Source: Verrucomicrobiales bacterium (GTDB taxonomy: Bacteria; Verrucomicrobiota; Verrucomicrobiia; Limisphaerales; JAYPEY01). Taken from it: a stretch of 64,000 nt of DNA. The stretch is taken from NCBI GenBank assembly GCA_038126235.1, contig JAYPFK010000011.1, forward strand, positions 81,863-145,862, read 5' to 3'. This document shows positions 5,596 through 63,128 of the stretch, piece by piece. Under the pieces are notes generated by a model. That model made no database searches, was not told the origin of the DNA, and worked only from the letters and a program-made list of their open reading frames with translations. The position numbers and the translations under genes are program-made. Position 1 is the stretch's first letter. Each line of letters begins with the position of its first letter.

Positions 5596-7824
5596 ATGAG
5601 CAAATCCGGCTTCCTTGAATTTCGCCCGCATCGGCTTGGCCAAAATCTGTTCCCCCGCCTTGTCGCGATCCTGTGCCTCGCGCTGTGCGCTGTTCCGTTG
5701 GCTCAGCCCAAAGCGGCGGAGCGGCCCAACATTGTCCTGCTGTTCGCGGACGACATGGGCTACTCGGACATCGGCTGCTTCGGCTCGGAAATTGAGACGC
5801 CGAACCTCGACCGGCTCGCGACCAACGGCGTGCGCTTCTCTCACTTCTACAACACCGGCCGCTGCTGCCCCTCGCGCGCGTCCATCCTGACGGGACTTTA
5901 TCCGCACCAGGCGGACATCGGACACATGGCCGGCGACCTCGGCGTTCGGGGTTACCGGGACCGCCTGAGTTTCAACGCCGTCACGCTGGCCGAGGTCCTC
6001 GGCTCCGCCGGCTATCACACCATCATGTCCGGCAAATGGCACCTCGGCTGGCGCGACGAGGGCTGCCCCACCGCCCGGGGTTTCCAGCAGTTCTACGGGA
6101 CGCGCGGCTACATCGACAGCTACTACACCATCGTCCCGCGCACCGAGGTCTACCTGAACGAGAAGCTCGTCCTGCCCGTCACCGAGAAGCCGGTCAACCA
6201 CCTCCGGCCCGATCAGGAGTGGTACACCACCGATGTCTTCACCGACTACGCGCTGCACTTCATCGACAACGCACGCGCCCGGGACGACCAACCCTTCTTC
6301 CTCTACCTCGCCTACAACGCGCCGCACTTCCCGCTCCACGCCAAACCCGAGGACGTGAAGAAGTATCGCGGACGTTACCGCGACGGCTGGAAGAAGTTTC
6401 GCGAACAACGCCACGCGCGGCTGCAGGAACTGGGCATCGTCGACCAACGCTGGCCGCTTTCGCCGCTCGACGTTCCAGAGTGGGATTCGCTCACCGACCA
6501 GCAGCGCGACGACATGGACTTCAAGATGTCCCTGTTCGCCGCGATCGTGGATCGGCTTGACCAGAACATCGGCCGCGTCGTTGATCACCTGGAGAAGATC
6601 GGCGAACTGGACAACACATTGCTGATCTTCGTGTCCGACAATGGCGGGACCAAGGAGACCGGTCTGTTCGGCATCAAGGGAGACAAGAACACGGTTGCGA
6701 ACTACGACGCCTGGGCGCGTGTGGGCGGCTGGTCCAGCAGCTACGGCCAGGGCTGGGCCAACCTGAGCAACACGCCCTTCCGCCGCTACAAACGTGAAAA
6801 CCACGAGGGCGGCGTCAGCGCCCCGTTCATCGCGCACTGGCCCGCCGGCATCAAGACGAAGGGCGCGCTGCGGAAACAGGTCGCGCACTTGGTCGATCTC
6901 ATGCCGACCTTCGCCGAGGTCGCGGACGCGACCTATCCGACGGAGTTCAAGGGACACAAGATCCAGCCGCTGGAGGGCCGCAGCCTGCTGCCCTTTTTTG
7001 ATTCGACGAAAACCGAACCGCGGACGCTTTTCTGGGAACACGAGGGCAACCGCGCCATCCGCGATGGCGATTGGAAGCTCGTGGGGAGCCGGAACGAACC
7101 CTGCGAGCTCTACCGGATGGATCGCGACCGCACCGAACTGAACGACCTCAGCGGGAAAGAGCCCGGACGTTTTGCCGCTCTGACGAAGAAGTGGGACGCC
7201 TGGGCGGAAAAGGTCGGGGTCCTGACGCCTGAGGAATTCGAGACGACGCGCAAGGCCTTCAACGCCCAACGCGAGAAGTCACTCCCGAAGGTGGGCGTGG
7301 AAGTCTGCGGCGAGGTGTTGCAGTTCGCGAGCCAGCGGACGAAACGCCGCAACGGCGTCTGGGAATTCAATGGCAAGGGCTGGCTCGATCTCCCCCGCAA
7401 GTCCGCGCCCGAGGTGGCGGGCCGACGAAATCTCCGCTTCAGCGGCAGGTTTGAGACGGAGGCTCAGGACGGCGTCCTCGTGGCGCACGGCGGCAATCGC
7501 ATGGGCATTGCCGTCCACCTGAAACAAGGGCGGCTGGTCTTCACGCAGGTCTCGGATTGGAAGCGGGCGGCGGTTCGCTCCCAACCCTTGGGAGCCGGCG
7601 AACATCGCTTCGAGGCGACGCGCCACGCGGACGGCCGCCTGACGCTCCGGGTGGACGATCGGGCGCCGATTTCCGCGACGAGCGCAGTCCTGCAGAACAA
7701 CCCCGGCGACTCGCTCCAGATCGGCGCGGACACCATCCAACCGGTCGGGGAGTATTCGTCGCCGAACGCCTTCCGAGGACGGCTGTGGGACCTGAAGATC
7801 GACTACGGCACCAGAACGCGGTAG
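5596..7824 (+). CDS. Cys-type sulfatase with C-terminal LamG-like domain
   Basis: Signal peptide (LVAILCLALCAVPLAQP). Motifs PNIVLLFADDMGYSD and the formylglycine motif CCPSRASILTG. C-terminal ~200 aa has a concanavalin/LamG-like pattern (GVLVAHGGNRMGIAVHLKQGRLVF...LRVDD...FRGRLWDLKI). Start at ATG 5596. Confidence 0.88.
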   Translation: MSKSGFLEFRPHRLGQNLFPRLVAILCLALCAVPLAQPKAAERPNIVLLFADDMGYSDIGCFGSEIETPNLDRLATNGVRFSHFYNTGRCCPSRASILTGLYPHQADIGHMAGDLGVRGYRDRLSFNAVTLAEVLGSAGYHTIMSGKWHLGWRDEGCPTARGFQQFYGTRGYIDSYYTIVPRTEVYLNEKLVLPVTEKPVNHLRPDQEWYTTDVFTDYALHFIDNARARDDQPFFLYLAYNAPHFPLHAKPEDVKKYRGRYRDGWKKFREQRHARLQELGIVDQRWPLSPLDVPEWDSLTDQQRDDMDFKMSLFAAIVDRLDQNIGRVVDHLEKIGELDNTLLIFVSDNGGTKETGLFGIKGDKNTVANYDAWARVGGWSSSYGQGWANLSNTPFRRYKRENHEGGVSAPFIAHWPAGIKTKGALRKQVAHLVDLMPTFAEVADATYPTEFKGHKIQPLEGRSLLPFFDSTKTEPRTLFWEHEGNRAIRDGDWKLVGSRNEPCELYRMDRDRTELNDLSGKEPGRFAALTKKWDAWAEKVGVLTPEEFETTRKAFNAQREKSLPKVGVEVCGEVLQFASQRTKRRNGVWEFNGKGWLDLPRKSAPEVAGRRNLRFSGRFETEAQDGVLVAHGGNRMGIAVHLKQGRLVFTQVSDWKRAAVRSQPLGAGEHRFEATRHADGRLTLRVDDRAPISATSAVLQNNPGDSLQIGADTIQPVGEYSSPNAFRGRLWDLKIDYGTRTR

Positions 7825-28466: not shown

Positions 28467-29510
28467 GTGTCGGCGCTGAATGTCGAATTCCATCGCGGCG
28501 CTCCATTCCTGCCGGAACTGGGGTTGTGGCTGGACGCCCGCGACGCGAAGCGCGAGGGCGCGCGGGTCCTTGTCAGCCACGCCCACGCCGACCACCTGGG
28601 ACGCCATCGCGAGGTCATCCTCACCGAACCGACGCATCTCCTGATGAACGTCCGGGTCGGCGGCGGCCGGCTGGCGCACGTGTTGGACTACGGCCAACCC
28701 GCCCCCTTCGAGCACAACGGACGCGAGTTCCGGATCACGCTCCAGCCCGCCGGCCACATCCTCGGCAGCGCGATGGCCCTGATTGAATGCGACGGCGAAG
28801 CGCTGCTCTACACCGGCGACTTCAAGCTCAACGCCGGTTTTGCCGCCGAAGCCTGCCAACCCGTCCCGGCCGACACGCTCATCATGGAGACCACCTTCGG
28901 CCGGCCCGCGTTCCGCTTTCCGCCCGCCAGCGAAACCATGGAGGAAATCGCGAAATTCTGCCGCAAAACACTGAAAAAGGGCGAAACGCCCGCCCTGCTC
29001 GCCTACTCGCTGGGCAAGAGCCAGGAACTGTTGGTCGGGCTGAAGGATCAGGACTTCCAGTTTGTCGTGCATCCCGCTGTGCACGAGATAAACGAGGTCT
29101 ACCGCGCCTGCGGCGTCGTGTTTCCCCGCTACGCACAGATCGGCGACCGACGCATCGACGGCCGCGTCCTGATCTGCCCCTCCTCCGCCAAGCTCCCGGT
29201 CAACATCAGCTCCGACGACCGTTTGAAGAAGGCGGTCGTCTCCGGCTGGGCCATTGAGCGAAGCTGCAAATACCGGCACAAGGCCGACGCCGCCTTCCCC
29301 CTGAGCGACCATTCGGATTTCGATGAACTGGTTGAATTCGTGCGCCGCGTGAATCCCCAACGCGTCTGCACCATGCACGGCTTCGCCTCGGATTTCGCCT
29401 GGACCCTGCGCGACCTCGGTTTCAACGCCCGGGCCATCAGCGAACCCGAGCAGATGACGCTGGCGCTGCCTGGCGCCTTGAACGGCTTTGACGAACCAGG
29501 CGAGGACTGA
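28467..29510 (+). CDS. MBL-fold metallo-hydrolase, beta-CASP-like nuclease
   Basis: HxHxDH motif (SHAHADHLG). Motifs LYTGDFK and the C-terminal DHSDFDELVEFVRRVNPQRVCTMHG. GTG start at 28467. Confidence 0.8.
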   Translation: MSALNVEFHRGAPFLPELGLWLDARDAKREGARVLVSHAHADHLGRHREVILTEPTHLLMNVRVGGGRLAHVLDYGQPAPFEHNGREFRITLQPAGHILGSAMALIECDGEALLYTGDFKLNAGFAAEACQPVPADTLIMETTFGRPAFRFPPASETMEEIAKFCRKTLKKGETPALLAYSLGKSQELLVGLKDQDFQFVVHPAVHEINEVYRACGVVFPRYAQIGDRRIDGRVLICPSSAKLPVNISSDDRLKKAVVSGWAIERSCKYRHKADAAFPLSDHSDFDELVEFVRRVNPQRVCTMHGFASDFAWTLRDLGFNARAISEPEQMTLALPGALNGFDEPGED

Positions 29511-29556
29511 ATCTTTCCTTGTTCGCCGTCGTCCGGAAGGTAAACAATCCCCGCTC

Positions 29557-32256
29557 ATGTTTCATTCCGCCCAACGCTCCTTTCGGGGCGCGGTCTGCGC
29601 CGCGACAATCGCGGCGGCAACCGGCGCCGCCACCGCAGCAGAAACCCTCGTCCCCTCGGATCTCTTCACGACCCTGCCCGGTCTGGAGGTCACCGTCTGG
29701 GCGGCCTCGCCGATGCTCAAGAACCCCACCAACATCGACATCGACAAGGACGGCCGCATCTGGGTCGCCGAGGGCGTCAATTACCGCGGCCACTATGGCC
29801 GACGCGCCGAGGGCGACCGCATCACCGTGCTGGAGGACACCGACGGCGACGGCAAGGCCGACAAGGAGTGGACCTTCGTGCAGGAGAAGTTCCTCGTCGC
29901 GCCGTTGGGCGTGGCGGTTTTTGACAACAAGATCGTCGTGTCCCAGACCCCGGACCTGATCGTCTACACCGACGTCAACCGGAACCTGAAGTTCGACGAG
30001 GGCACGGACAAGCGCGAGGTCCTGCTCTCCGGCTTCAACGGCCGCAACCACGACCACAGCCTCCACAGCGTCTACGCCGGCCCCGACGGCCGCTGGTATT
30101 TCAGCGCCGGCAACTGCGGCGCGAAGTTCACCGACAAGTCCGGCAAGACCTTCCGCATCGGCGGCCCCTACAATCCGCGCTCCACGCACAAGGAGACTCC
30201 CATGCTCTTCAACAACAATGAAATCGCCGGCCAGACCAGCGACGACGGCCACGTCTGGGTTGGCGGCTTTGTGGCGCGGGTCTATCCCGACGGAACGAAG
30301 TGCGAGATCCTCGGCCACAACTTCCGCAACAGCTACGAGCAGACCGTCACCTCCTTCGGCGACATCTTCCAGAACGACAACGACGATCCGCCCGCCTGCC
30401 GCGTCGACTATGTGATGGAAGGCGGCAACGCCGGTTTCGCCTCGGCGGACGGCAAGCGCGACTGGCGCGCGGACAAGCGCCCCGGCCAGGACGTTCCCAC
30501 CGCGGAATGGCGGCAGGAGGATCCCGGCACGATGCCGTCCGGTGATGTCTACGGCGGCGGCTCCCCCACCGGCGTCGCCTTCTACGAGAACGGCGCGCTC
30601 GGCAAGGAGCACGAAGGCATGCTGCTTTCCTGTGAGGCCGGCCGCAATGTGGTCTTCGGCTACAAGCCCCGCCTCGACGGCGCCGGCTTCAAGCTGGAGC
30701 GCTTCGACTTCCTCACCTCGAACAAGGACAAGCAGTTCGCCGGTTCGGACTTCCTCGGCGGCCACAACAGCGTGAACAACGAGCTGAAGACCCTGTTCCG
30801 TCCCTCCGACGTCTGCGTCGGCCCGGACGGCGCGGTCTACGTCTCGGACTGGTTCGACGCCCGCGTCGGCGGTCATGCCGCCCTGGACGAAACGGACTCC
30901 GGCGCGATCTACCGCGTCGCCCCGCGCGGCTTCACGCCGAAGGTCCCGGAACTTGATCTGAAGAAGACCAAGGGCCAGCTCGCCGCCCTCGAAAGCCCCG
31001 CAGTGAACGTCCGCACGCTCGGCTTCAACGCGCTGAAGCAGGAAGGCGGACGCAAGGCGGCCTCCACCGCCGCGAAACTGCTGGGCGACAGCAACCCTTA
31101 CCTCCATGCGCGCGGCGTCTGGCTGCTGGCCAACCTCGGCAGCGCGGGCCTGGGCCGCGTGGAGAAGGAACTGAGCGACAAGGACCCGAACATCCGCATC
31201 GCCGCCTTCCGCGCCCTGCGCCAGATGGACAGCAACGTCCTCATCCATTCCCGACTCCTGGCGAAGGACCCTTCCCCCGCCGTCCGTCGCGAAGTCGCAC
31301 TGGCCATGCGCAACGTCAAGCTCGCCGACGCCCGTGACATCCTGATTGACATCGCCAAGGGCTTCGACGGCAAGGACCGCCACTACCTCGAGGCGATCGG
31401 CCTCGGCTGCAAGGGCAAGGAGGCGCCGATGTTCGAGGCCTTCGCCAAGGCCCTCGGCGGCGACACGGCCGGCCCGCGCTGGTCGCCGAAATACGCGAAG
31501 ATCGCCTGGCGGCTGCATCCGGAAAGCTCGGTCTCGGCCTTCCGCGCCCGGGCGCTGTCCCTGACCCTGTCGCCGGAGGATCGCAAGGAGGCGTTGACCG
31601 CCCTCGCGTTCATCTACACCCAGGCCGCCGCCGACGCGGTGGTCGAGATCGCCGAACGCTCCTCCGGTTCGCTCCAGGCCACCGCCGTCTGGTGGCTGCT
31701 CAACCAGAGCAACCACAACTGGAAGGACTTCGGCCTCCGCGCCAAGCTCAAGGCGAGCGGCATCTACGATCCGGCGACCGTCCAGGTCATGTCGCTGATG
31801 GTCCCCAAACCGGAGGGACCGACCAGGATGAAGGTCGAAGACGTCCTGAAACTGACCGGCAACCCCCAGACCGGCAAACAGATCGCGACCGCCTGCGTCA
31901 CCTGCCATCGCGTCGAGGGCGTCGGCGTCGATTACGCGCCGGATCTGAACGCCTTCGCCAAGACCCAGACCACCGATGTCATCATCCGCTCGATCATCGA
32001 TCCTTCGGCCGACATCTCCCACGGCTACGACGGCTACCAGATCGTCACCAAGGACGACCAGACCATCCACGGCCTGATCCTCTCCGACGGCGATCCCGTG
32101 ATCGTCCAGTCCATGGGCGGCGTGACCCAGATGATTCCAAAGAACCGCATCAAGTCGAAAACCAAGCTCGGCCGCTCCCTCATGCTCTCCGCCGAGCAAC
32201 TGGGACTCACCGAACAGTTCGTCGCCGACATCGTGGCCTATCTGAAGGGGCTGTGA
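29557..32256 (+). CDS. PVC-type heme-binding CxxCH protein (dehydrogenase-like propeller + HEAT repeats + cytochrome c domain)
   Basis: Signal peptide. N-terminal block PMLKNPTNIDIDKDGRIWVAEGVNYRG...DTDGDGKAD. HEAT-like repeats (NPYLHARGVWLLANLG, DPNIRIAAFRAL). C-terminal CVTCHRVEG...GYDGYQIVTKDD domain. Confidence 0.88.
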   Translation: MFHSAQRSFRGAVCAATIAAATGAATAAETLVPSDLFTTLPGLEVTVWAASPMLKNPTNIDIDKDGRIWVAEGVNYRGHYGRRAEGDRITVLEDTDGDGKADKEWTFVQEKFLVAPLGVAVFDNKIVVSQTPDLIVYTDVNRNLKFDEGTDKREVLLSGFNGRNHDHSLHSVYAGPDGRWYFSAGNCGAKFTDKSGKTFRIGGPYNPRSTHKETPMLFNNNEIAGQTSDDGHVWVGGFVARVYPDGTKCEILGHNFRNSYEQTVTSFGDIFQNDNDDPPACRVDYVMEGGNAGFASADGKRDWRADKRPGQDVPTAEWRQEDPGTMPSGDVYGGGSPTGVAFYENGALGKEHEGMLLSCEAGRNVVFGYKPRLDGAGFKLERFDFLTSNKDKQFAGSDFLGGHNSVNNELKTLFRPSDVCVGPDGAVYVSDWFDARVGGHAALDETDSGAIYRVAPRGFTPKVPELDLKKTKGQLAALESPAVNVRTLGFNALKQEGGRKAASTAAKLLGDSNPYLHARGVWLLANLGSAGLGRVEKELSDKDPNIRIAAFRALRQMDSNVLIHSRLLAKDPSPAVRREVALAMRNVKLADARDILIDIAKGFDGKDRHYLEAIGLGCKGKEAPMFEAFAKALGGDTAGPRWSPKYAKIAWRLHPESSVSAFRARALSLTLSPEDRKEALTALAFIYTQAAADAVVEIAERSSGSLQATAVWWLLNQSNHNWKDFGLRAKLKASGIYDPATVQVMSLMVPKPEGPTRMKVEDVLKLTGNPQTGKQIATACVTCHRVEGVGVDYAPDLNAFAKTQTTDVIIRSIIDPSADISHGYDGYQIVTKDDQTIHGLILSDGDPVIVQSMGGVTQMIPKNRIKSKTKLGRSLMLSAEQLGLTEQFVADIVAYLKGL

Positions 32257-52535: not shown

Positions 52536-52612
52536 AAAGGTAGGGCGAATTGTCCTCAATGAGCCGCGCCGGGACATGCTCACGTAGGCTCACTGAGGGT
52601 TGCCCCACCTTT
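52536..52612. repeat. Family-3 repeat, copy 2 (full hairpin form)
   Basis: The left arm is AAAGGTAGGGCGAATTGTCCTCAATGAGCC. The right arm GGCTCACTGAGGGTTGCCCCACCTTT has reverse complement AAAGGTGGGGCAACCCTCAGTGAGCC, so the two pair imperfectly. Confidence 0.75.
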
Positions 52613-52761
52613 GCGGTCATCTCGGCATTCTTCCCTTCATCAGCCCCTGGATTGAGATCGGCTTTCGCGCGCCTCCCGCAAATTACCTTGCGCGACCAAG
52701 CCCCCAAACGTATAGCGGAACCGCCTCAAACAGCTTTCCCAATGCAACGATTCGCAACCTC

Positions 52762-54114
52762 ATGAAAACCACCCGCCGCCAGTTCCTGCAGACCTCCGCC
52801 GTCGCTTCCGCCGCCTTCTCCCTGCCGTCCTTTGCCATCGGCAAGCCGGGCGAATCCGCGAACAACCGGATCAATGTCGCCGTCGTCGGCTGCGGCGGCA
52901 TGGGCGGCTACGCGGTCGGCGAGGCGTTGAAGCAGAATCCCGTGGCCTTCTGCGACGTGGACAACGAGCGCGCCGCCGGAGCCTTCAAGCGCGCCCCGGA
53001 CACCCGGCGCTTCAAGGACTTCCGCGTCATGCTCGACAAGATGGGCAAGGAAATCGACGCGGTCTGCATCTCCACGCCGGACCACACGCACTTCGCCGCC
53101 GCGATGGCGGCCATGGAACGCGGCAAGCATGTCTTCGTGCAGAAGCCGCTGACCCACAACATCTGGCAGGCGCGCACGCTGCGGAAGGCAGCAAAGCATT
53201 ACAAGGTCATCACCCAGATGGGCAACCAGGGCCACACCTTCGACGGCATGCGCCGCATCAAGGAATGGGTGGACGCCGGCGTGGTCGGCGATGTCCGCGA
53301 GGTGATCACCTGGACGAACCGCCCTTGCGCGCCCTGGTTCATCGCGCCGGAGGAATTCCCCATCCGGACGGAGGCCGCCCCCGCGACGCTGGATTGGAAT
53401 CTCTGGCAGGGGCCAGTGAAACATCGAAAGTTCAGCCGCGAATACGTTCCGATCAAATGGCGGTCCTGGTGGGACTACGGTTGCGGCGCCCTCGGCGACA
53501 TCGGCTGCCACACCTTCGACGCGCCGTTCTACTCGTTGGGCCTCGGCTCGCCGACGCGGGTGGAGATCGAGCGCGAGGATCCGCCAGGACCGGGCTTCAT
53601 CCCGATGAAATCCGTCGTCACCTACCATTTCCCGGCGCGCGGAAACAAACCGCCGGTCGTGATGAAGTGGTATGAGGCCGGCTACGAAGTGCCCAAGCCG
53701 AAGCGCTGGGACAAGGGCGAGCCCATTCCGCCCAAGGGAGGCATGTACATGGAGGGGACGAAGAACACCCTCTTCCACGAGGGCATGCGCCCGAACAAAC
53801 CCGTCCTCACGCCCGAGGCCCGCTTAGCCGAGATGGAGGGCGAACTCGACAAGATCGAGCGCCTGCCGTCCGTCGGCAACGGTCCCATCGACGAGTGGTT
53901 CCGCGCCATCAAGGGCGACGGCGCCCTGCCTGGCTCCAACTTCGACTACGCCGCGCCCCTGACCGAGATGGTCCTCCTCGGCGCCCTCGCCCAGCGCACC
54001 GGAAAGAACATCGAGTGGGACGCGAAAAACATGAAGGTCAAGGGCCAGCCCGAATTTGACGAACTCATCAAGGAGCCCGCGCTCAAGGAATTCCGTTACG
54101 GCGAGACGCTTTGA
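52762..54114 (+). CDS. Gfo/Idh/MocA family oxidoreductase with twin-arginine signal
   Basis: TAT signal MKTTRRQFLQTSAVASAAFSL. Rossmann motif INVAVVGCGGMGG. Motifs DAVCISTPDHTHF and KHVFVQKPL. Confidence 0.88.
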   Translation: MKTTRRQFLQTSAVASAAFSLPSFAIGKPGESANNRINVAVVGCGGMGGYAVGEALKQNPVAFCDVDNERAAGAFKRAPDTRRFKDFRVMLDKMGKEIDAVCISTPDHTHFAAAMAAMERGKHVFVQKPLTHNIWQARTLRKAAKHYKVITQMGNQGHTFDGMRRIKEWVDAGVVGDVREVITWTNRPCAPWFIAPEEFPIRTEAAPATLDWNLWQGPVKHRKFSREYVPIKWRSWWDYGCGALGDIGCHTFDAPFYSLGLGSPTRVEIEREDPPGPGFIPMKSVVTYHFPARGNKPPVVMKWYEAGYEVPKPKRWDKGEPIPPKGGMYMEGTKNTLFHEGMRPNKPVLTPEARLAEMEGELDKIERLPSVGNGPIDEWFRAIKGDGALPGSNFDYAAPLTEMVLLGALAQRTGKNIEWDAKNMKVKGQPEFDELIKEPALKEFRYGETL

Positions 54115-54315: not shown

Positions 54316-55617
54316 TCAGATCGACCAACCCTTGCGGTAGATGTGCTGGATGAACTGGTCGGCCTCGGCGCAGTTGGTCGCCTTGAGGTTCTTCGCGTCC
54401 CATTCCAGTTTCCTGCCGGCGCGGAAGGCGACGTTGCCAAGCAGGGCGGCCTCGGTCAGCGGGCCGGAATACTCGAAGTGACAGGTGGTGGGGCCGCCGT
54501 TGAGGCAGGCCATGACCCATTCCTTGTGGTGGCCGATGGAATCCGGAATCCACGGCTCCGGCGCCTTGAAGCCGGCGAACTTGTCCTCCGGCAGCAGGAC
54601 GTGGCTCCCGTAGTTCGCGAGGAGCATGCCCTCGTTGCCGATGAACAGGACGCCGCTCTTGTAGCGCGCCGCGTATTTCTCCGGCAGACCGGCCGGACGT
54701 TTGCCGCCGTGATACCAGGTGAGATCGACGGGCGGTTGACCGAGGCGGGCGGCGTATTGATAGCGGACCTTGAGCCACGTCGGAACCCCGTAGGGATGAA
54801 CGTCAGGCCCCTCCGCCTCGATGGTGAGCGGGTATTTCAGATCCAGCGCCCAGAAGGGCAGGTCCATGTAGTGGCAGCCAAAGTCGCCGAGCTGGCCGCC
54901 GGAGAACATCCACCAGTCACGCCAGTTCTTGGGGACGTATTGCGAGCTGTAGGGAACCTCCGGCACGGGGCCGAGCCAGAGATCGAAGTCGATGTGCGAC
55001 GGGACCTGCTCCACTTCCGTGGGCAGCTCCTTGCCGCCGCGCCCGCCGGAAACCCAGACATGCACCTCGCCAACCTGCCCGATGGCGCCGGAACGGACGA
55101 GTTCCACCACGCGCCGGTAATTCGCGCCCGAGTGGATCTGCGTCCCGATCTGCGTGACGCGACGGTTCCGGACGGCGGCGTTGGTGATGGCGCGGACCTC
55201 GGAAAGCGTGCGGGCCAGCGGCTTTTCGCAGTAGACGTGGCGCCCGCCGTTCAACGCGGCGACGGCCGCCACGGCGTGCGTGTGGTCCGGAGTGCCGACG
55301 ACGATGGCGTCGAGATCCTTCTGCGCCAACAGCTCGCGGAAGTCGTGGTAGGTCTTCGCGTCGGGGTGCTCGTTGGCGGCGCGGTCGAGATAGTTGTTGT
55401 CGATGTCGCAGAGCGCGCCGACGTTGACGTGCTCCCACACATCGGAGACCCCCTTAAGGTCGGCGGCGGCACGGTTGGCCACGCCGATGAATCCGACGTT
55501 GAGCTTGCCGTTCGCCGATCCCTTGGCGAGCGAGACATAAGGCGCGGCCAGGGCGGCCGACGCGGCCAGGGCGGATTGCTTGAGGAAGGAACGGCGGGTG
55601 GTGGAGGTGGCTTTCAT
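54316..55617 (-). CDS. Gfo/Idh/MocA family oxidoreductase with twin-arginine signal
   Basis: TAT signal MKATSTTRRSFLKQSALAASAALA. Rossmann motif LNVGFIGVANRAA. Motifs DAIVVGTPDHTHA and RHVYCEKPL. Start at ATG 55617. Confidence 0.88.
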   Translation of the reverse strand: MKATSTTRRSFLKQSALAASAALAAPYVSLAKGSANGKLNVGFIGVANRAAADLKGVSDVWEHVNVGALCDIDNNYLDRAANEHPDAKTYHDFRELLAQKDLDAIVVGTPDHTHAVAAVAALNGGRHVYCEKPLARTLSEVRAITNAAVRNRRVTQIGTQIHSGANYRRVVELVRSGAIGQVGEVHVWVSGGRGGKELPTEVEQVPSHIDFDLWLGPVPEVPYSSQYVPKNWRDWWMFSGGQLGDFGCHYMDLPFWALDLKYPLTIEAEGPDVHPYGVPTWLKVRYQYAARLGQPPVDLTWYHGGKRPAGLPEKYAARYKSGVLFIGNEGMLLANYGSHVLLPEDKFAGFKAPEPWIPDSIGHHKEWVMACLNGGPTTCHFEYSGPLTEAALLGNVAFRAGRKLEWDAKNLKATNCAEADQFIQHIYRKGWSI

Positions 55618-55784
55618 GAATCGTCGTGGTCTGATCTTGAATGTCGGAGCTTCCGGCTTTGTCGAGCGTCCTCTGGTAACCACACCAGTCGACGGCGTCA
55701 ATCATTCCACGCCTTTCCCAAACGCGCCGGGAATCACTTTTTTCGAACCTTTCTTCCCGATGTCGGGACCGCAGACTGCACCGG

Positions 55785-57629
55785 ATGGAGAACAACGAAC
55801 AATCGAAGCGACGCCTCGTCTCCATATTCCAAGGCGTCAACTCAGCGCGACGGCTGGCCGTGTTCACTTGTCTTATCATCGGAACTGTGGCGTTCTCTAG
55901 AGCCTCCCTCAACGCGGCTCCCGCCAACAAGGCGCCGAAAACACCGGAAGAATATCGAAAGCAGGCCATGAAGCTGGAGGGCGACGCCTCCCGAGGCGCA
56001 ACGCTCTTCGCGGACGAACAACGCCTCGGCTGCTCGAAGTGTCATTCCACCGACGGCAGCGGCTCCAAGGCGGGCCCGGATTTGGCTTCGGTGGGGGATG
56101 TCTTCGCGCGGGGCGAACTCATCGACGCGGTGTTGACGCCTTCGTCCGCGATCGCTGTGGGCTACAGCACAACCCGCGTGACAACCAAGGCGGACGAAGA
56201 GGTGACGGGCGTGCTCAAGCAGGTGACGGGCGACTGAATCGAACTGGCGGTCGCGGACGGCAGCCGGATCCGCATCGCAACAAAGGACATCCGCCAACAA
56301 CAAGGCAGCGACCTTTCCCTCATGCCGGAGGGCCTGCAGACGTCGCTGAAGGCGCAGGAGTTTGCGGACCTCGTCGAGTTCCTTGTCAGCCGCAAGCAAC
56401 CTGCCAACGCGCTCACGACCCATCACGGCATGCCGGAGGTGATCCCGCAACTGGAGCGCTCCATCGAGTTGAACCCCTTCCTTTCCAAGGAGTTTCGCCT
56501 GCCGCCTCCGCCCAACGAACCGGCCCGGAAGAAACCTAAGACGGGCCTGATCTGGTTCGAACAGATCCCGGGGTTTCCGCAACGGTTCCTTGTCGCCCAC
56601 CAGGCCGGCGTCATCTGGTCGATCGACAAACGGGCCAAGGACGACGGCCGGCGGGTGTTCATCGACTTCTCCAGGGAGACCTACAGTGAGCGGGGCCCCA
56701 ACGGGCTGCTCGGCCTGACCTTCCATCCGAAGTTCCGGAAGAACCGGAAATACTACGTGAAGCGCCAGATCTTCGAGGCGGAGAAGATCTCAACGCTGCT
56801 GGAGGAACGGACGACCACCGCGGATGGCATGCGCGATTCCGGCCGCACGCCCCGGCTCCTGCTGAAGATAGCCGCCGTGGCCGAGCATCACAACGGCGGC
56901 TGCATCCAGTTCGGCCCGGACGGGTTCCTCTATTTCGGCATGGGCGACTCCGCCCCGAACTTCGATCCCCAGGGCTACGGCCACGATCTCGGTCTGCTCT
57001 TCGGCAAGATGCTGCGGATCGATGTCGATCATCAGGACGACGGCCTGCCCTACGCGATTCCCGCCGACAATCCGTTTCGCGAACGTCCCGGCGCGCGGCC
57101 GGAAATCTGGGCCTACGGGTTTCGCGAGCCCTGGCGCTTCAGCTTCGATTCCGCCACCGGCGAGCTCTGGGTGGCCGATCTGGGGCAGGAACGAGGCGAC
57201 GAGCTGGCCATCGTCCACCGCGGGAAAAACCACGGCTGGAATGTCTACGAAGGATTCGAACTGTTCTCGAACGGGCATCGCCGGGAAGGCGAGGTCTACA
57301 CGCCGCCGCTCTTCGCCTCACGCCGCCGGCACGGAGCCGCCATCATGGGCGGCCACGTCTACCACGGCGACAAGGGAGCCTCATTCCAAGGGGTCTACAT
57401 CTTCGGCGACCACCGGTCGAAGCGGATCTGGGGACTGACCCGGGACGGCGCCTCACTCAAGACCATCCGGCAACTGGGCGAATGTCCGCAGTCGATCACC
57501 GCCTTCGCCGCCGACGAACAGGGCAACCTCTATGTAGTCGGCTTCGAGGGCATGGTCTACCAGCTCGATTTCACCGGCGCTCGGTTCGACGGGCCGGTGA
57601 AGGCGGCCGAGGCGCCGTCCGCGCCGTGA
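55785..57629 (+). pseudogene. Cytochrome c (PVC-type CxxCH domain) fused to PQQ-dependent sugar dehydrogenase (SGDH-like), interrupted by one in-frame TGA at 56235-56237
   Basis: ORFs 55785..56237 and 56322..57629 share one reading frame. The 84 nt between them translate without further stops and continue the heme-domain consensus through SLMPEGL...FADLVEFL. Heme motif CSKCHSTDG. SGDH motifs HNGGCIQFGPDGFLYFGMGD, PADNPF, EIWAYGFREPWRFSFD and GKNHGWNVYEG. Confidence 0.75.
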
Positions 57630-57831: not shown

Positions 57832-60768
57832 ATGAAACCAATCGCCCTCACCGTCGTCGTTGCGCTTCTCGCCTCCACCTCCTTCGCCGCCGAGATTGAC
57901 GGTCCGCTCACGCCCCAGGATTCGCTGAAACACTTCAAGCTGGAAGCGGGCCTGAAACTGGAACTCGCCGTGGCCGAACCCCTGGTCGTCGATCCGGTCG
58001 CAACCGCCTTTGACGCCGCCGGGCGAATGTATGTCGCGGAGAACCGCGGCTACCCAACCGGCCCTGGCGAGGGCAAGGCCCCGCTCGGTGTCGTCGCGCT
58101 GCTGGAGGACGCAGACAATGACGGCGTCTTTGAGAAGCGCACGGAGTTCGCGAAGGAACTGAGCTACCCGAACGGCCTCCTGCCCTGGCGGGGCGGCGTT
58201 TTCGTCACCTGCGCGCCGGACATCTTCTACCTCAAGGACACCGACGGCGACGGCAAGGCGGACGTCCGCAAGGTCGTGCTGACCGGCTTCCACATCAAGA
58301 GCACGACCCAGCTCCGCGTCAGCCACCCGAAGCTCGGCCCCGACGGCTGGGTCTGGGTGACCGCCGGTCTGCAGGGCGGCGACGTCGAATCACCGCTGAA
58401 CGACAAGCAGGCGAAGGTCTCCTACAAGAAGAGCGACGGGCGGTTTCATCCGGACACCTTCGAGTTCACCACGGTCTCGGGGCAGGCGCAGTTCGGCCTC
58501 ACCTTTGACGACTACGGGAACAAGTTCATCTGCGCCAATCGCAATCCCATCTGGCACACCGTCCTCCAACCCGAACAGCTCCAGCGCAACCCGCGCTACG
58601 CCTTCTCACAGACCGTGAACGTCGTGGGCACGGCCGGGGCCGAGTCCGTGGTTTCCCCCCTGAGTCGAGACACCACCACCGCCGGCTTCCACGCGTCCCT
58701 GCTTTCCAGCCTGCACCTCGGCTCCTTCACTTCCGCCTGCGGCACGCTGATCTTCCGCGGCGACGGACTGACGCCCGACCACTACGGCGACGCCTTCATC
58801 TGCGAGCCGGCGCAAAACCTCGTGCAGCGCCGCGTTCTCATCCCGACCGGAGGCTCCTTCGACGCCCGCATCGCCAAGGACGGCGAGGACTTCCTCGCCA
58901 CGCCCGACACCTGGTCGCGCATCGTTTACGCGGACCAGGGTCCTGACGGCGCGCTCTACCTCACGGACTTCTACCGCAAGACGCTCGACCATCCGCAGTA
59001 CCTGCCCGCGGACATGCGGGACACGGCGGACTTCGTCAGCGGCACAACCCAGGGCCGCATCTACCGCGTCGCGAAGAAGGGCGGAAAAAAGCGCCGCAAG
59101 CCGGAGGACCTCGCCGAGGCGGATTCAAAGAAGCTGGTCGCCGCACTGGACGACGCCAACGGCTGGCGCCGCGACACCGCGCGCCGGTTGCTCCTGGAAC
59201 GCAACGCGCCCGACTCCGTCGCGCCGCTGAAGCAGGCGATGCGCAAGGGCAAGACCCCGGCCGGCCGCGTCGCCGCCCTCTGGACGCTGGCCAATCTCGG
59301 CAAGCTCGAAAACGGCGCCCTTGCCGCGACACTCAAGGACAAGCATCCGCGCGTCCGGGAGAACGCCGTCCGCCTCGTCGAAACGCGCGCAAAGCAGGCT
59401 CCCGGCCTGGTGAAGGCGCTGCTGGCCATGAAGAACGACCCCGACGCCAAGGTCCGGTTCCAACAGGCTCTGGCGCTCGGGGAAACCGACGATCCCGCCA
59501 AGTTGAAACCACTGGCATCCATCGCGTTCCAGAGTCCCGAGGACCAGTGGACGCGCGCCGCGGTCCTGAGTTCCATCGGCGAGGACTCCAAGACCTTCGC
59601 CGTGAACCTCCTAGGTCTTCACGCGCTGACCAACACCAAGAAGCCGCGCGACCTCTCGCCCCTGATGAGCGACCTCGGCCGGATTCTGGGAGCCAGCCGT
59701 TCACCCGAGGATGTCCGTGAAGTGTTCGCCCTCGCGAACAAGTTTGAAGCTCCGTCCGACGCCGCGTGGCAGCGTTCCCTGTTGGCCGGCATCGCCGACG
59801 GTCTCCGCGCCAAGCGCTCCTCCCTCGTCGCGTTGCTCAACGGCTCCGACGCCGGCAAGGCCATGCGGCCCGACGTGGACGCCATCATGAAGCAGGCCGT
59901 CGCCGACGCCGCCGACGCCAAGGCTTCCGAGGCCGCCCGCCTCGCTGCCGTGGAGTTGCTCGCCCATTCCGATTACGCGACCTGCGGGGCGACGCTGCTG
60001 GATCTCGTTGGTTCCCGCGCCCCGCTCGACCTGCAGCAGGCCGCCATCCGGTCACTCACCCGCATCGTCGATCCGAAGATCGGCCCGGCCCTCGTCGAGC
60101 CGAAGAAATGGCGCGCCTATTCGCCGGCCATCAGCCAGGCCGTCGTGGGCGGCATGCTGTCCAACAGCCGCCTGCTGCCCGATCTCATGAAGGCGATGAA
60201 GACCGGCATCGTGCAGAGCTGGATGGTCGAGCCCCGCCGTCGCGCCAGCCTGATGAAATCGCGCGACAAGCAGGTGCAGGCGATCGCGAAGGAGATCTTC
60301 GGCAGCCTCGAATCCGGCGACCGCAAGAAGGCCTACGAGGAGGCGAAGGCCGCAGCCTCCATGAAGGGATCGGCCGCCAGCGGCAAGGTCGTCTACACCA
60401 AGGTCTGCGCGCAGTGCCACTTCTACGAGGGCGTGGGCGTCAAGGTCGGCCCCGACCTGACCGGCATGCGCAACCAGCCCGCCGAGGCGCTGCTCCTGCA
60501 CATCGTCATGCCGAATTACGAGGTCGTCCCCGGCTTCACCAGCTACGAGCTCGACACCAAGGACGACCGCAGCCTCAGCGGCCTGCTCGCCTCCGAGTCG
60601 GACACCAGCGTGACCATCCGCCAGGCGCAGGGCGTCGAGGAGACCGTGCTTCGCTCCAACATCCTCTCGATGCGCTCCACCAGTCTCTCGCTCATGCCGG
60701 AGGAGTTGGAGAAGAGCATCACCAAGCAGGAACTGGCGGACCTGCTGGCGTTCCTGAAGGGGCAGTGA
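57832..60768 (+). CDS. PVC-type heme-binding CxxCH protein (dehydrogenase-like propeller + HEAT repeats + cytochrome c domain)
   Basis: Signal peptide. Motifs EPLVVDPVATAFDAAGRMYVAENRGYP and DTDGDGKAD. HEAT-like repeats (HPRVRENAVRLV, DPDAKVRFQQALALG). C-terminal CAQCHFYEG...SLMPEELEKSITKQELADLLAFLKG. Confidence 0.88.
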   Translation: MKPIALTVVVALLASTSFAAEIDGPLTPQDSLKHFKLEAGLKLELAVAEPLVVDPVATAFDAAGRMYVAENRGYPTGPGEGKAPLGVVALLEDADNDGVFEKRTEFAKELSYPNGLLPWRGGVFVTCAPDIFYLKDTDGDGKADVRKVVLTGFHIKSTTQLRVSHPKLGPDGWVWVTAGLQGGDVESPLNDKQAKVSYKKSDGRFHPDTFEFTTVSGQAQFGLTFDDYGNKFICANRNPIWHTVLQPEQLQRNPRYAFSQTVNVVGTAGAESVVSPLSRDTTTAGFHASLLSSLHLGSFTSACGTLIFRGDGLTPDHYGDAFICEPAQNLVQRRVLIPTGGSFDARIAKDGEDFLATPDTWSRIVYADQGPDGALYLTDFYRKTLDHPQYLPADMRDTADFVSGTTQGRIYRVAKKGGKKRRKPEDLAEADSKKLVAALDDANGWRRDTARRLLLERNAPDSVAPLKQAMRKGKTPAGRVAALWTLANLGKLENGALAATLKDKHPRVRENAVRLVETRAKQAPGLVKALLAMKNDPDAKVRFQQALALGETDDPAKLKPLASIAFQSPEDQWTRAAVLSSIGEDSKTFAVNLLGLHALTNTKKPRDLSPLMSDLGRILGASRSPEDVREVFALANKFEAPSDAAWQRSLLAGIADGLRAKRSSLVALLNGSDAGKAMRPDVDAIMKQAVADAADAKASEAARLAAVELLAHSDYATCGATLLDLVGSRAPLDLQQAAIRSLTRIVDPKIGPALVEPKKWRAYSPAISQAVVGGMLSNSRLLPDLMKAMKTGIVQSWMVEPRRRASLMKSRDKQVQAIAKEIFGSLESGDRKKAYEEAKAAASMKGSAASGKVVYTKVCAQCHFYEGVGVKVGPDLTGMRNQPAEALLLHIVMPNYEVVPGFTSYELDTKDDRSLSGLLASESDTSVTIRQAQGVEETVLRSNILSMRSTSLSLMPEELEKSITKQELADLLAFLKGQ

Positions 60769-61487: not shown

Positions 61488-61563
<76 letters not shown>

Positions 61564-61715
61564 ACCGAAGGGGGTGGAATTTATTCAACCGTCGGGATTT
61601 GTCAACACCCGCATGCGCGCGGGAACAAAACTTTTTTGACGAGGAGGAAGAGGCCAAACCGCCAGGGCGCGTGAAGCGGCTCACGGACTCGATTGCATTC
61701 GCGACGTCCGGGGGT

Positions 61716-63128
61716 ATGATCGCCCCCATGTCCGCGCAATCGAGCCCGGCGTTCGCCGAGAACCCTCCGCTGTTCAAGGACGACCTTGTGCTGAAACAGG
61801 GAGCGGACTTTCGCGGGCTGACCATCCAGAGCCTGCTGGGCAAGGGCGGCATGGGCTCGGCCTTCCTGGCCAGCCATCCCATCCTGCGCGTTCCGCTCGT
61901 GATCAAGACATTCCGGCCGCTGGATGAGGGCGACATCTTCAAGGAGGCGCATCTGGCCGCCCGCGTGTCCTCCCCGCACACCATCGCGGTCGTGGATGCG
62001 GGCTTCGAGCGGGGCATCCCCTTCATGATCCAGGAGTACGTGGACGGGATCGACCTGGGCGAGTTGACGCGCTGGCTGCTCCAGTGCCGACTGGAGGCCC
62101 CGGTGGGCATGGTTGCGCGGATCGCCGCCCAGGCGTCGGAGGGTCTGCACGCCATTCACCAGGCCGGCGTGGTGCATTGCGACGTCAAGCCGCCCAACCT
62201 TTTCCTCCGCGGCGACGGCAACATCACCATCGGCGACTTTGGCATCGCGATTCCGGCAATCGCCGAGCATGGCGCGAACTACGCGGGTTCCCCTTATTTC
62301 GCCGCGCCGGAACAATGGCGCGACGATCCCCTGGACCGCCGCTGTGACATCTATGCGCTGGGAGCCACCATGCACTTCCTGAAACGCCAGGAACCGCCCT
62401 TCCGGGGGCCGGAGATCGAGGATATCCGGGAGGCGCATCTGCATTGCCCCTACCAGCCCCCCGAAACCTCGGATCCCGTCGAGGCCTTCTTCTACCTGAT
62501 CGTCGGGACCATGATGCAGAAACATCCCGACGCGCGTCCCGCCACCGCGGCGATCGTGGCGCGCAACCTGCAGGGACACCAGTTGATGCCGCCGAGTTAC
62601 ACTGCCGAGTCCGAGCATTGCCTCAAGGTCGGCCCCCTGCGCGTGACCCTCAGCGTCGCCGACCTCACCCAGACCAAGGCCGATGTCATCGTCAACGCCG
62701 CCAGCCGGAGCCTGAGCATGCACGATGGACTCGCGGGGGCGCTCCGGGAGGCCGGCGGAGCCGAAATCGAGACCGAGGCCGCCAAGCACGCTCCCGTGGC
62801 GTTGGGGGATGTGATCTGGACGAAGGCCGGCCGACTGCGGGCCAAAGCGGTCGCCCACGCCGCCGCCGCGACCAAGGGCGCCGCCTGCATCCAACGCTGC
62901 GTGCTGCGGACGCTTCTCGGGGCGGAGCGGCGGGGGTTCAAATCCGTCGCCTTTCCGGCCCTTGGCACGGGCATCGCGGAACTCCCGGCCGAGAGCGCCG
63001 CCCAACTCACCCTTGAAGCCATCCGCACCTTCGCCGAATTCCAACCCCGACGTGTGACCGACGCGGAAATCGTCGTCAACAACCTCGAAGTCTACCGTTC
63101 CTGGATGGACATCGCCGATGCGATCTGA
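61716..63128 (+). CDS. Hanks-type Ser/Thr protein kinase fused to a C-terminal macro domain
   Basis: Kinase motifs: GKGGMGSAF (Gly loop), LVIKTF (Lys), HCDVKPPNLF (catalytic loop), IGDFGIA (DFG) and YFAAPE (APE). Macro-like C-terminus: ADVIVNAAS...DGLAGALREAGG...FKSVAFPALGTGIAELP. Start at ATG 61716 or 61728; the ORF-track start at 61599 abuts the tRNA. Confidence 0.8.
   Translation: MIAPMSAQSSPAFAENPPLFKDDLVLKQGADFRGLTIQSLLGKGGMGSAFLASHPILRVPLVIKTFRPLDEGDIFKEAHLAARVSSPHTIAVVDAGFERGIPFMIQEYVDGIDLGELTRWLLQCRLEAPVGMVARIAAQASEGLHAIHQAGVVHCDVKPPNLFLRGDGNITIGDFGIAIPAIAEHGANYAGSPYFAAPEQWRDDPLDRRCDIYALGATMHFLKRQEPPFRGPEIEDIREAHLHCPYQPPETSDPVEAFFYLIVGTMMQKHPDARPATAAIVARNLQGHQLMPPSYTAESEHCLKVGPLRVTLSVADLTQTKADVIVNAASRSLSMHDGLAGALREAGGAEIETEAAKHAPVALGDVIWTKAGRLRAKAVAHAAAATKGAACIQRCVLRTLLGAERRGFKSVAFPALGTGIAELPAESAAQLTLEAIRTFAEFQPRRVTDAEIVVNNLEVYRSWMDIADAI

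Follow-up and report, generated by a model that had tools for sequence, protein, structure and literature searches.

A single in-frame TGA within the heme domain of a Verrucomicrobiales cytochrome c/PQQ-type sugar dehydrogenase fusion gene: a probable recent nonsense mutation

When two open reading frames (ORFs) lie in the same frame and are parted by a single TGA, it must be asked whether they are two genes or one and, if they are one, whether the internal stop is a mutation, an error in the sequence or a codon that the cell can read as sense. We examined this question for positions 55785–57629 (+) of a 64-kb stretch of DNA (the whole of the 64,000 nucleotides analysed, hereafter the window). 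Our preferred answer, which we hold to be probable, is a recent nonsense mutation in a gene encoding an exported fusion of a cytochrome c and a PQQ-type sugar dehydrogenase, and the mutated gene belongs to a large, redundant family. The original prediction had left three readings side by side, namely a recent nonsense mutation, a sequencing or assembly error, and recoding of the UGA. The first of these is now favoured and the second is weakened by the presence of the TGA in three separately assembled runs; within the third, selenocysteine has become very unlikely and a reassigned code is excluded for the window.

Architecture of the disrupted gene

The whole disrupted gene (55785–57629, +) comprises 614 codons with one internal TGA and is laid out as a signal peptide, a c-type heme domain (TIGR02603), a linker and a GSDH/PQQ-type sugar dehydrogenase beta-propeller (PF07995). 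As had been proposed, the ORFs at 55785–56237 and 56322–57629 share one frame, and the TGA at 56235–56237 (+; codon 151), opposite which most relatives have Trp (TGG), is the only stop between them; both ORFs are reported by gene callers. The upstream fragment of 150 aa (55785–56234, +, with the ORF running to 56237 including the stop) carries a predicted Sec-type signal peptide, recognised by eye from a basic N-terminus, the hydrophobic stretch LAVFTCLIIGTVAF and an SLNA/AP cleavage-like site, followed by the first ~85 heme-domain residues, among them the CSKCH heme-attachment motif (56031–56045, +; C83, C86 and H87). The 84 nt that separate the stop from the next ATG (56238–56321, +) translate to IELAVADGSRIRIATKDIRQQQGSDLSL, which is still heme-domain-like (mean 59% identity to 39 relatives), and a peptide spanning the stop would read, for example, QVTGDWIELAVADGSR.

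The downstream ORF of 435 aa (56322–57629, +) starts at M180 with MPEGLQTSLKAQEFADL and contains the tail of the heme domain, the linker and the GSDH propeller. The original prediction was correct that its first ATG is the M of the SLMP motif, of which S178, M180 and P181 are invariant in 40 of 40 aligned sequences, and also that it has no signal peptide; inspected by eye, it begins with no basic N-terminus, no hydrophobic stretch and no cleavage-like site. By the same inspection, the signal peptide sits on the upstream fragment, which is a separate chain from the propeller. No Shine-Dalgarno-like sequence was found before either ATG, which says little in this organism, and a scan for internal promoter-like sites returned 0, with terminator-like sites at chance level.

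TIGR02603 matched residues 66–202 of the read-through product in one stretch (profile positions 1–133 of 134, 99 bits), and the read-through product was the only one to score above the NCBIfam cut-off of 68.15 bits. Because this match runs unbroken across codon 151, the stop falls inside one domain. The Pfam domain Cytochrom_C was found at the CxxCH region of the read-through product, and in a 40-sequence alignment C83 and C86 were invariant and H87 nearly invariant. The stop separates CSKCH (residues 83–87) from the SLMP motif, with M180 lying 29 codons past the TGA, and the 150-aa product is left without M180 and without the C-terminal helix. From ordinary cytochrome c chemistry, M180 of SLMP is presumed to be the distal axial heme ligand. 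An AlphaFold2 model of moderate confidence (pLDDT 69), in which the heme domain, lacking its cofactor, is poorly modelled, would place codon 151 between strands 139–146 and 153–155, in a small beta module of the heme domain.

In the second half of the gene, Pfam GSDH (PF07995) matched residues 266–585 at 135 bits against a gathering threshold of 25, and the closest solved structures to this half were the propeller of Hedgehog-interacting protein (HHIP) and the PQQ-type sugar dehydrogenases 3a9g and 2g8s. Conservation in the 40-sequence alignment extends to the HHNGG region, where H368 is nearly invariant and H369, G371 and G372 are invariant. At two other positions, Q400H (56982–56984) and R527H (57363–57365, in the GGxVYRGD motif), His replaces residues that are invariant in the other 39 sequences; these substitutions could be specific to the lineage or could hint that constraint has begun to relax. 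The propeller is predicted to bind PQQ and to oxidise sugar. PQQ-type enzymes work outside the cytoplasm, in the periplasm.

Relatives of the fusion and the codon that was lost

A protein database search returned 7,894 proteins at E ≤ 1e-20, and the best 120 were examined. At least 118 of these 120 were fusions covering 83–100% of the read-through product, most of them ~540–720 aa in length, and most of the 120 carry both the cytochrome c and the GSDH Pfam domains. Named sources among the best 120 were Verrucomicrobia, Limisphaerales or Verrucomicrobiales, and the names given to the proteins included 'PQQ-dependent sugar dehydrogenase' and 'putative heme-binding domain-containing protein'. Cytochrome-c/GSDH fusions of Verrucomicrobia have the same order of signal peptide, TIGR02603, linker and PF07995 and are 54–69% identical over 83–100% of the length; unlike them, the window copy has a TGA at codon 151 together with Q400H and R527H. 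The nearest relative is 66–69% identical, and all aligned relatives have a sense codon at the site. One look-alike split at the site was present in the best 120 (P0001), and it is the window's own 435-aa ORF. GTDB species genomes contributed one locus (66% identity) and JGI metagenomes two loci (56% identity), and exact look-ups returned identical Logan contigs only. A literature search on the TIGR02603/PVC-type heme family yielded no relevant papers.

These searches bear on whether the two ORFs are a functional split, with two polypeptides made separately that either work singly or come together. Such a reading would account for the reporting of both ORFs by gene callers and for the ATG that stands 84 nt past the stop, yet none of 1.84 billion representative proteins starts at the SLMP Met. 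Matches in that set that align from the SLMP Met all have 147–319 further N-terminal residues, and for stand-alone GSDH proteins the alignment starts no earlier than about query residue 77. Because no library protein starts at this Met, we regard the 435-aa ORF as a remnant and not as a natural architecture. A functional split would moreover have its break within one domain, with the CxxCH parted from the invariant SLMP Met, and would direct its products to different compartments, the first ORF being exported and the second lacking a signal peptide; the want of a Shine-Dalgarno-like sequence at either ATG also speaks against it, although this is a weak point in this organism. We consider two working polypeptides to be highly improbable.

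Treating the locus as one gene, we asked which codon the TGA had replaced. The original prediction had proposed Ser, lost through a single change from TCA to TGA, from an alignment with the paralog at 57832–60768 (+), an intact gene with DUF7133, HEAT and a TIGR02603 heme domain that serves here as a comparator only. The alignment itself held up (BLASTP 30% identity over 137 aa, E 2e-19), being gap-free around the stop with Ser opposite it, but the Ser codon of the paralog is AGC, which is two changes from TGA, and closer relatives mostly have Trp (TGG) at this column, which makes the paralog a poor guide. A sense codon stands at the site in 39 of 39 aligned relatives, with W in 24, G in 7, A in 5, R in 2 and E in 1.

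At the nucleotide level, the window reads GGC GAC TGA ATC GAA (VTGD-stop-IEL) where locus L004, from a Verrucomicrobia MAG, reads GGT GAC TGG ATC GAA (VTGD-W-IEL) and locus L007 reads GAC GCT TGG ATC GAA. In a neighbour-joining tree a long branch leads to the window sequence; W is found in its sister P0038 (which is L007, positions 6001–7782 of JADZEL010000038.1 in the Verrucomicrobiales MAG GCA_020850545.1) and in the neighbouring clades, and is scattered over the tree. A G-to-A transition that turned the Trp codon TGG into TGA is the most economical event and the likely one. These comparisons indicate that a distant paralog (30% identity) had misled the inference of the lost codon and that closer relatives give the simpler answer.

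Assembly error, selenocysteine and the genetic code

A sequencing or assembly error, in which the true codon would be TGG or another sense codon, needs a single-base difference only. Against this, exact look-up showed that the Logan assemblies of SRR26337559, SRR26337560 and SRR26337561 carry both ORF products side by side, and three Logan contigs from these separately assembled runs were 100% identical to the window over 3.0–4.1 kb, TGA included. A fourth Logan contig is on record for the same ORF products. The three runs have consecutive accession numbers and may stem from one study, or even be the genome's own reads, and the agreement is a demonstration of reproducibility across runs or libraries, not across populations; a literature search on the accessions found nothing. 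Contigs L001, L002 and L003 all stop at window position 58261, within the DTDGDGKAD motif of the 57832 paralog, and the 31-mer at this contig end is unique within the window. This shared end is probably a branch in the assembly graph that arose from paralogous repeats or strain variation.

The quality of the surrounding sequence was assessed by a scan of the 64 kb for same-frame neighbours, which returned one other coding-like pair (48683–47745 and 47681–46086, −). The pair was rejected as a split gene, as it consists of two unrelated genes with one TGA between them, one for a secreted protein of ~230 aa and the other for a membrane protein resembling sodium:solute symporters. Apart from the gene studied here, the 64 kb contain no same-frame split, and an error-ridden assembly with many split genes was rejected, there being no other broken frame in this stretch. 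Given the agreement of the three runs and the intact frames of the window, we judge an error at this one base to be very unlikely.

For insertion of selenocysteine at UGA-151, the sole support is that the in-frame UGA stands in a redox protein, and this is also the only likeness of the locus to bacterial selenoprotein genes. Unlike those genes, it has no SECIS and no Cys homologs at the site, and the site is non-catalytic: the column holds W, G, A, R or E and never Cys in 39 relatives, and it is a variable position and not a redox centre. The original prediction had raised a SECIS-like hairpin downstream of the stop, which was not borne out, as an Rfam search of the window at the gathering threshold gave no SECIS match, nor did one of 56100–56450 at E ≤ 10, and the 66 nt from the stop (56235–56300) folded no better than shuffled sequences (minimum free energy z −0.36). 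The only tRNA in the 64-kb window is a tRNA-Lys, and tRNA-Sec is absent from it. Selenocysteine was rejected because of the missing Cys in relatives, the missing SECIS and a fold equal to shuffles, and its probability is in our estimation very small.

A reassigned code, in which UGA is read as Trp or Gly, would agree with a stop opposite Trp, and there is a precedent within the phylum, since the Verrucomicrobiota lineage Ca. Pinguicoccus reads UGA as Trp (PMC13092985). The usage of TGA in the window stands against it, in that TGA terminates 27 of 34 coding frames, including the end of the disrupted gene itself (10 of these frames end as TGA-A), and occurs in frame only once in the 64 kb; the window is also 65% GC. 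Reassignment according to tables 4 and 25 was excluded for the window by this stop-codon usage, and we attach next to no probability to a reassigned code.

Constraint, consequences of the stop and genomic context

Divergence was measured on either side of the stop. Mean identity to relatives was 0.68 for the heme domain before the stop (0.72 among the relatives themselves), 0.59 for the 28 codons from the stop to the ATG (0.70), 0.66 for the heme-domain tail (0.78) and 0.69 for the propeller (0.75). At columns that are at least 90% conserved, the window copy deviated at 2 of 41 before the stop versus 18 of 218 after it (Fisher p 0.75). Relative-rate counts put the window lineage at ~2x several relatives and not faster than its tree sister, and the upstream and downstream parts did not differ. 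No second stop or frameshift was found after the TGA, and GC by codon position after the stop (0.66/0.44/0.84) is typical of coding frames in the window. The region after the stop thus shows no measurable decay of its own, and this fits a young mutation and continued use equally well. Because there is neither a second lesion nor faster divergence, the event is either very young or the gene is still of some use.

Under the preferred reading of a recent nonsense mutation, RF2 would terminate translation at the TGA and release an exported 150-aa fragment in which the CxxCH is present and M180 and the C-terminal helix are missing. The dehydrogenase half would remain untranslated or, if translation began at the internal ATG, would lack a signal peptide and end up in the wrong compartment. 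Because the fragment would be incomplete and the dehydrogenase half unmade or mislocated, the gene would functionally be a pseudogene. Some residual activity may come from low-level misreading of the UGA by Trp-tRNA(Trp), which would restore the ancestral Trp and yield some full-length protein, and with W, G, A, R and E all accepted at this column, other near-cognate residues would probably do as well. Our view that the gene has lost its function and that the change is recent is inferred from the sequence, as is any read-through. The locus resembles a nonsense pseudogene in having one in-domain stop, one transition away from the commonest residue, with many full-length relatives and no recoding signal; it differs from the usual nonsense pseudogene in that it has no second lesion and that no faster post-stop divergence was measured.

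Misreading of this kind could also be under selection. The A1 protein of phage Qbeta is a product of leaky UGA termination read by Trp-tRNA(Trp). UGA is the leakiest of the stops, and Trp-tRNA(Trp) competes with RF2 for it, giving 2–4% read-through in E. coli K-12 reporters (PMC10570021); suppressor tRNAs and a tRNA(Trp) with a 4-bp anticodon stem are also known from some bacteria with the standard code (PMC13092985). The window gene shares with the E. coli K-12 reporters and Qbeta A1 the UGA itself and Trp as the residue likely to be inserted, which here would restore the ancestral sequence. A selected read-through of UGA-151, whether programmed or tolerated, in which Trp-tRNA(Trp) or a suppressor tRNA supplies the full-length enzyme at a reduced dose, would be in keeping with the restoration of the ancestral Trp, with the tolerance of the site for W, G, A, R and E and with the absence of decay downstream of the stop. 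It is at odds with several features of the locus: the 66 nt from the stop form no stimulatory structure (their fold being no better than shuffles, z −0.36), the same TGA-A also closes 10 genuine genes in the window, where TGA stands in frame only this once, a stop is found in 0 of 39 aligned relatives (the nearest at 66–69% identity), and P0001 is the sole split-like product among the best 120. We consider selected read-through unlikely. Its more specific form, in which the TGA is maintained within the standard code and is usefully read by near-cognate Trp-tRNA(Trp), or else by a variant or suppressor tRNA, as a throttle on an exported quinohemoprotein, seems to us more doubtful still. If read-through were efficient and the stop conserved, this would be a natural case of a free-living bacterium reading through a chromosomal UGA, and of modest interest as such.

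With a recent nonsense mutation as the preferred reading, the proper annotation of 55785–57629 is one disrupted gene (pseudogene or 'internal stop') and not a small cytochrome followed by a cytoplasmic dehydrogenase. The finding matters little beyond annotation.

Three genes with a TIGR02603 heme domain lie in the 64 kb, at 29482–32256 (+), 55785–57629 (+) and 57832–60768 (+). The first and the third encode large, intact PVC-type heme-binding proteins with TIGR02604 or DUF7133 N-terminal domains, and such redundancy in the heme-domain family may make the loss of one copy cheap. A gene-neighbourhood comparison of the window with the tree sister P0038 revealed no synteny. Because the two gene neighbourhoods are completely different, the fusion family is not syntenic between these lineages; the neighbours of P0038 are Y1 transposase, PAPPA-like and Sel1 genes.

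Just upstream of the split gene is a divergent pair of Gfo/Idh/MocA oxidoreductase genes (52600–54114, +, and 54316–55701, −), for which the best NCBIfam match was glycoside 3-dehydrogenase (BT_2158 family), below its cut-off, and whose N-termini resemble twin-arginine signals. The context of the split gene suggests a periplasmic sugar-oxidation neighbourhood. Further downstream, a tRNA-Lys(CTT) gene lies at 61488–61563 (−), and beside it is an ORF of 509 aa (61599–63128, +) that by eye resembles a Ser/Thr protein kinase, with one more domain at its C-terminus.
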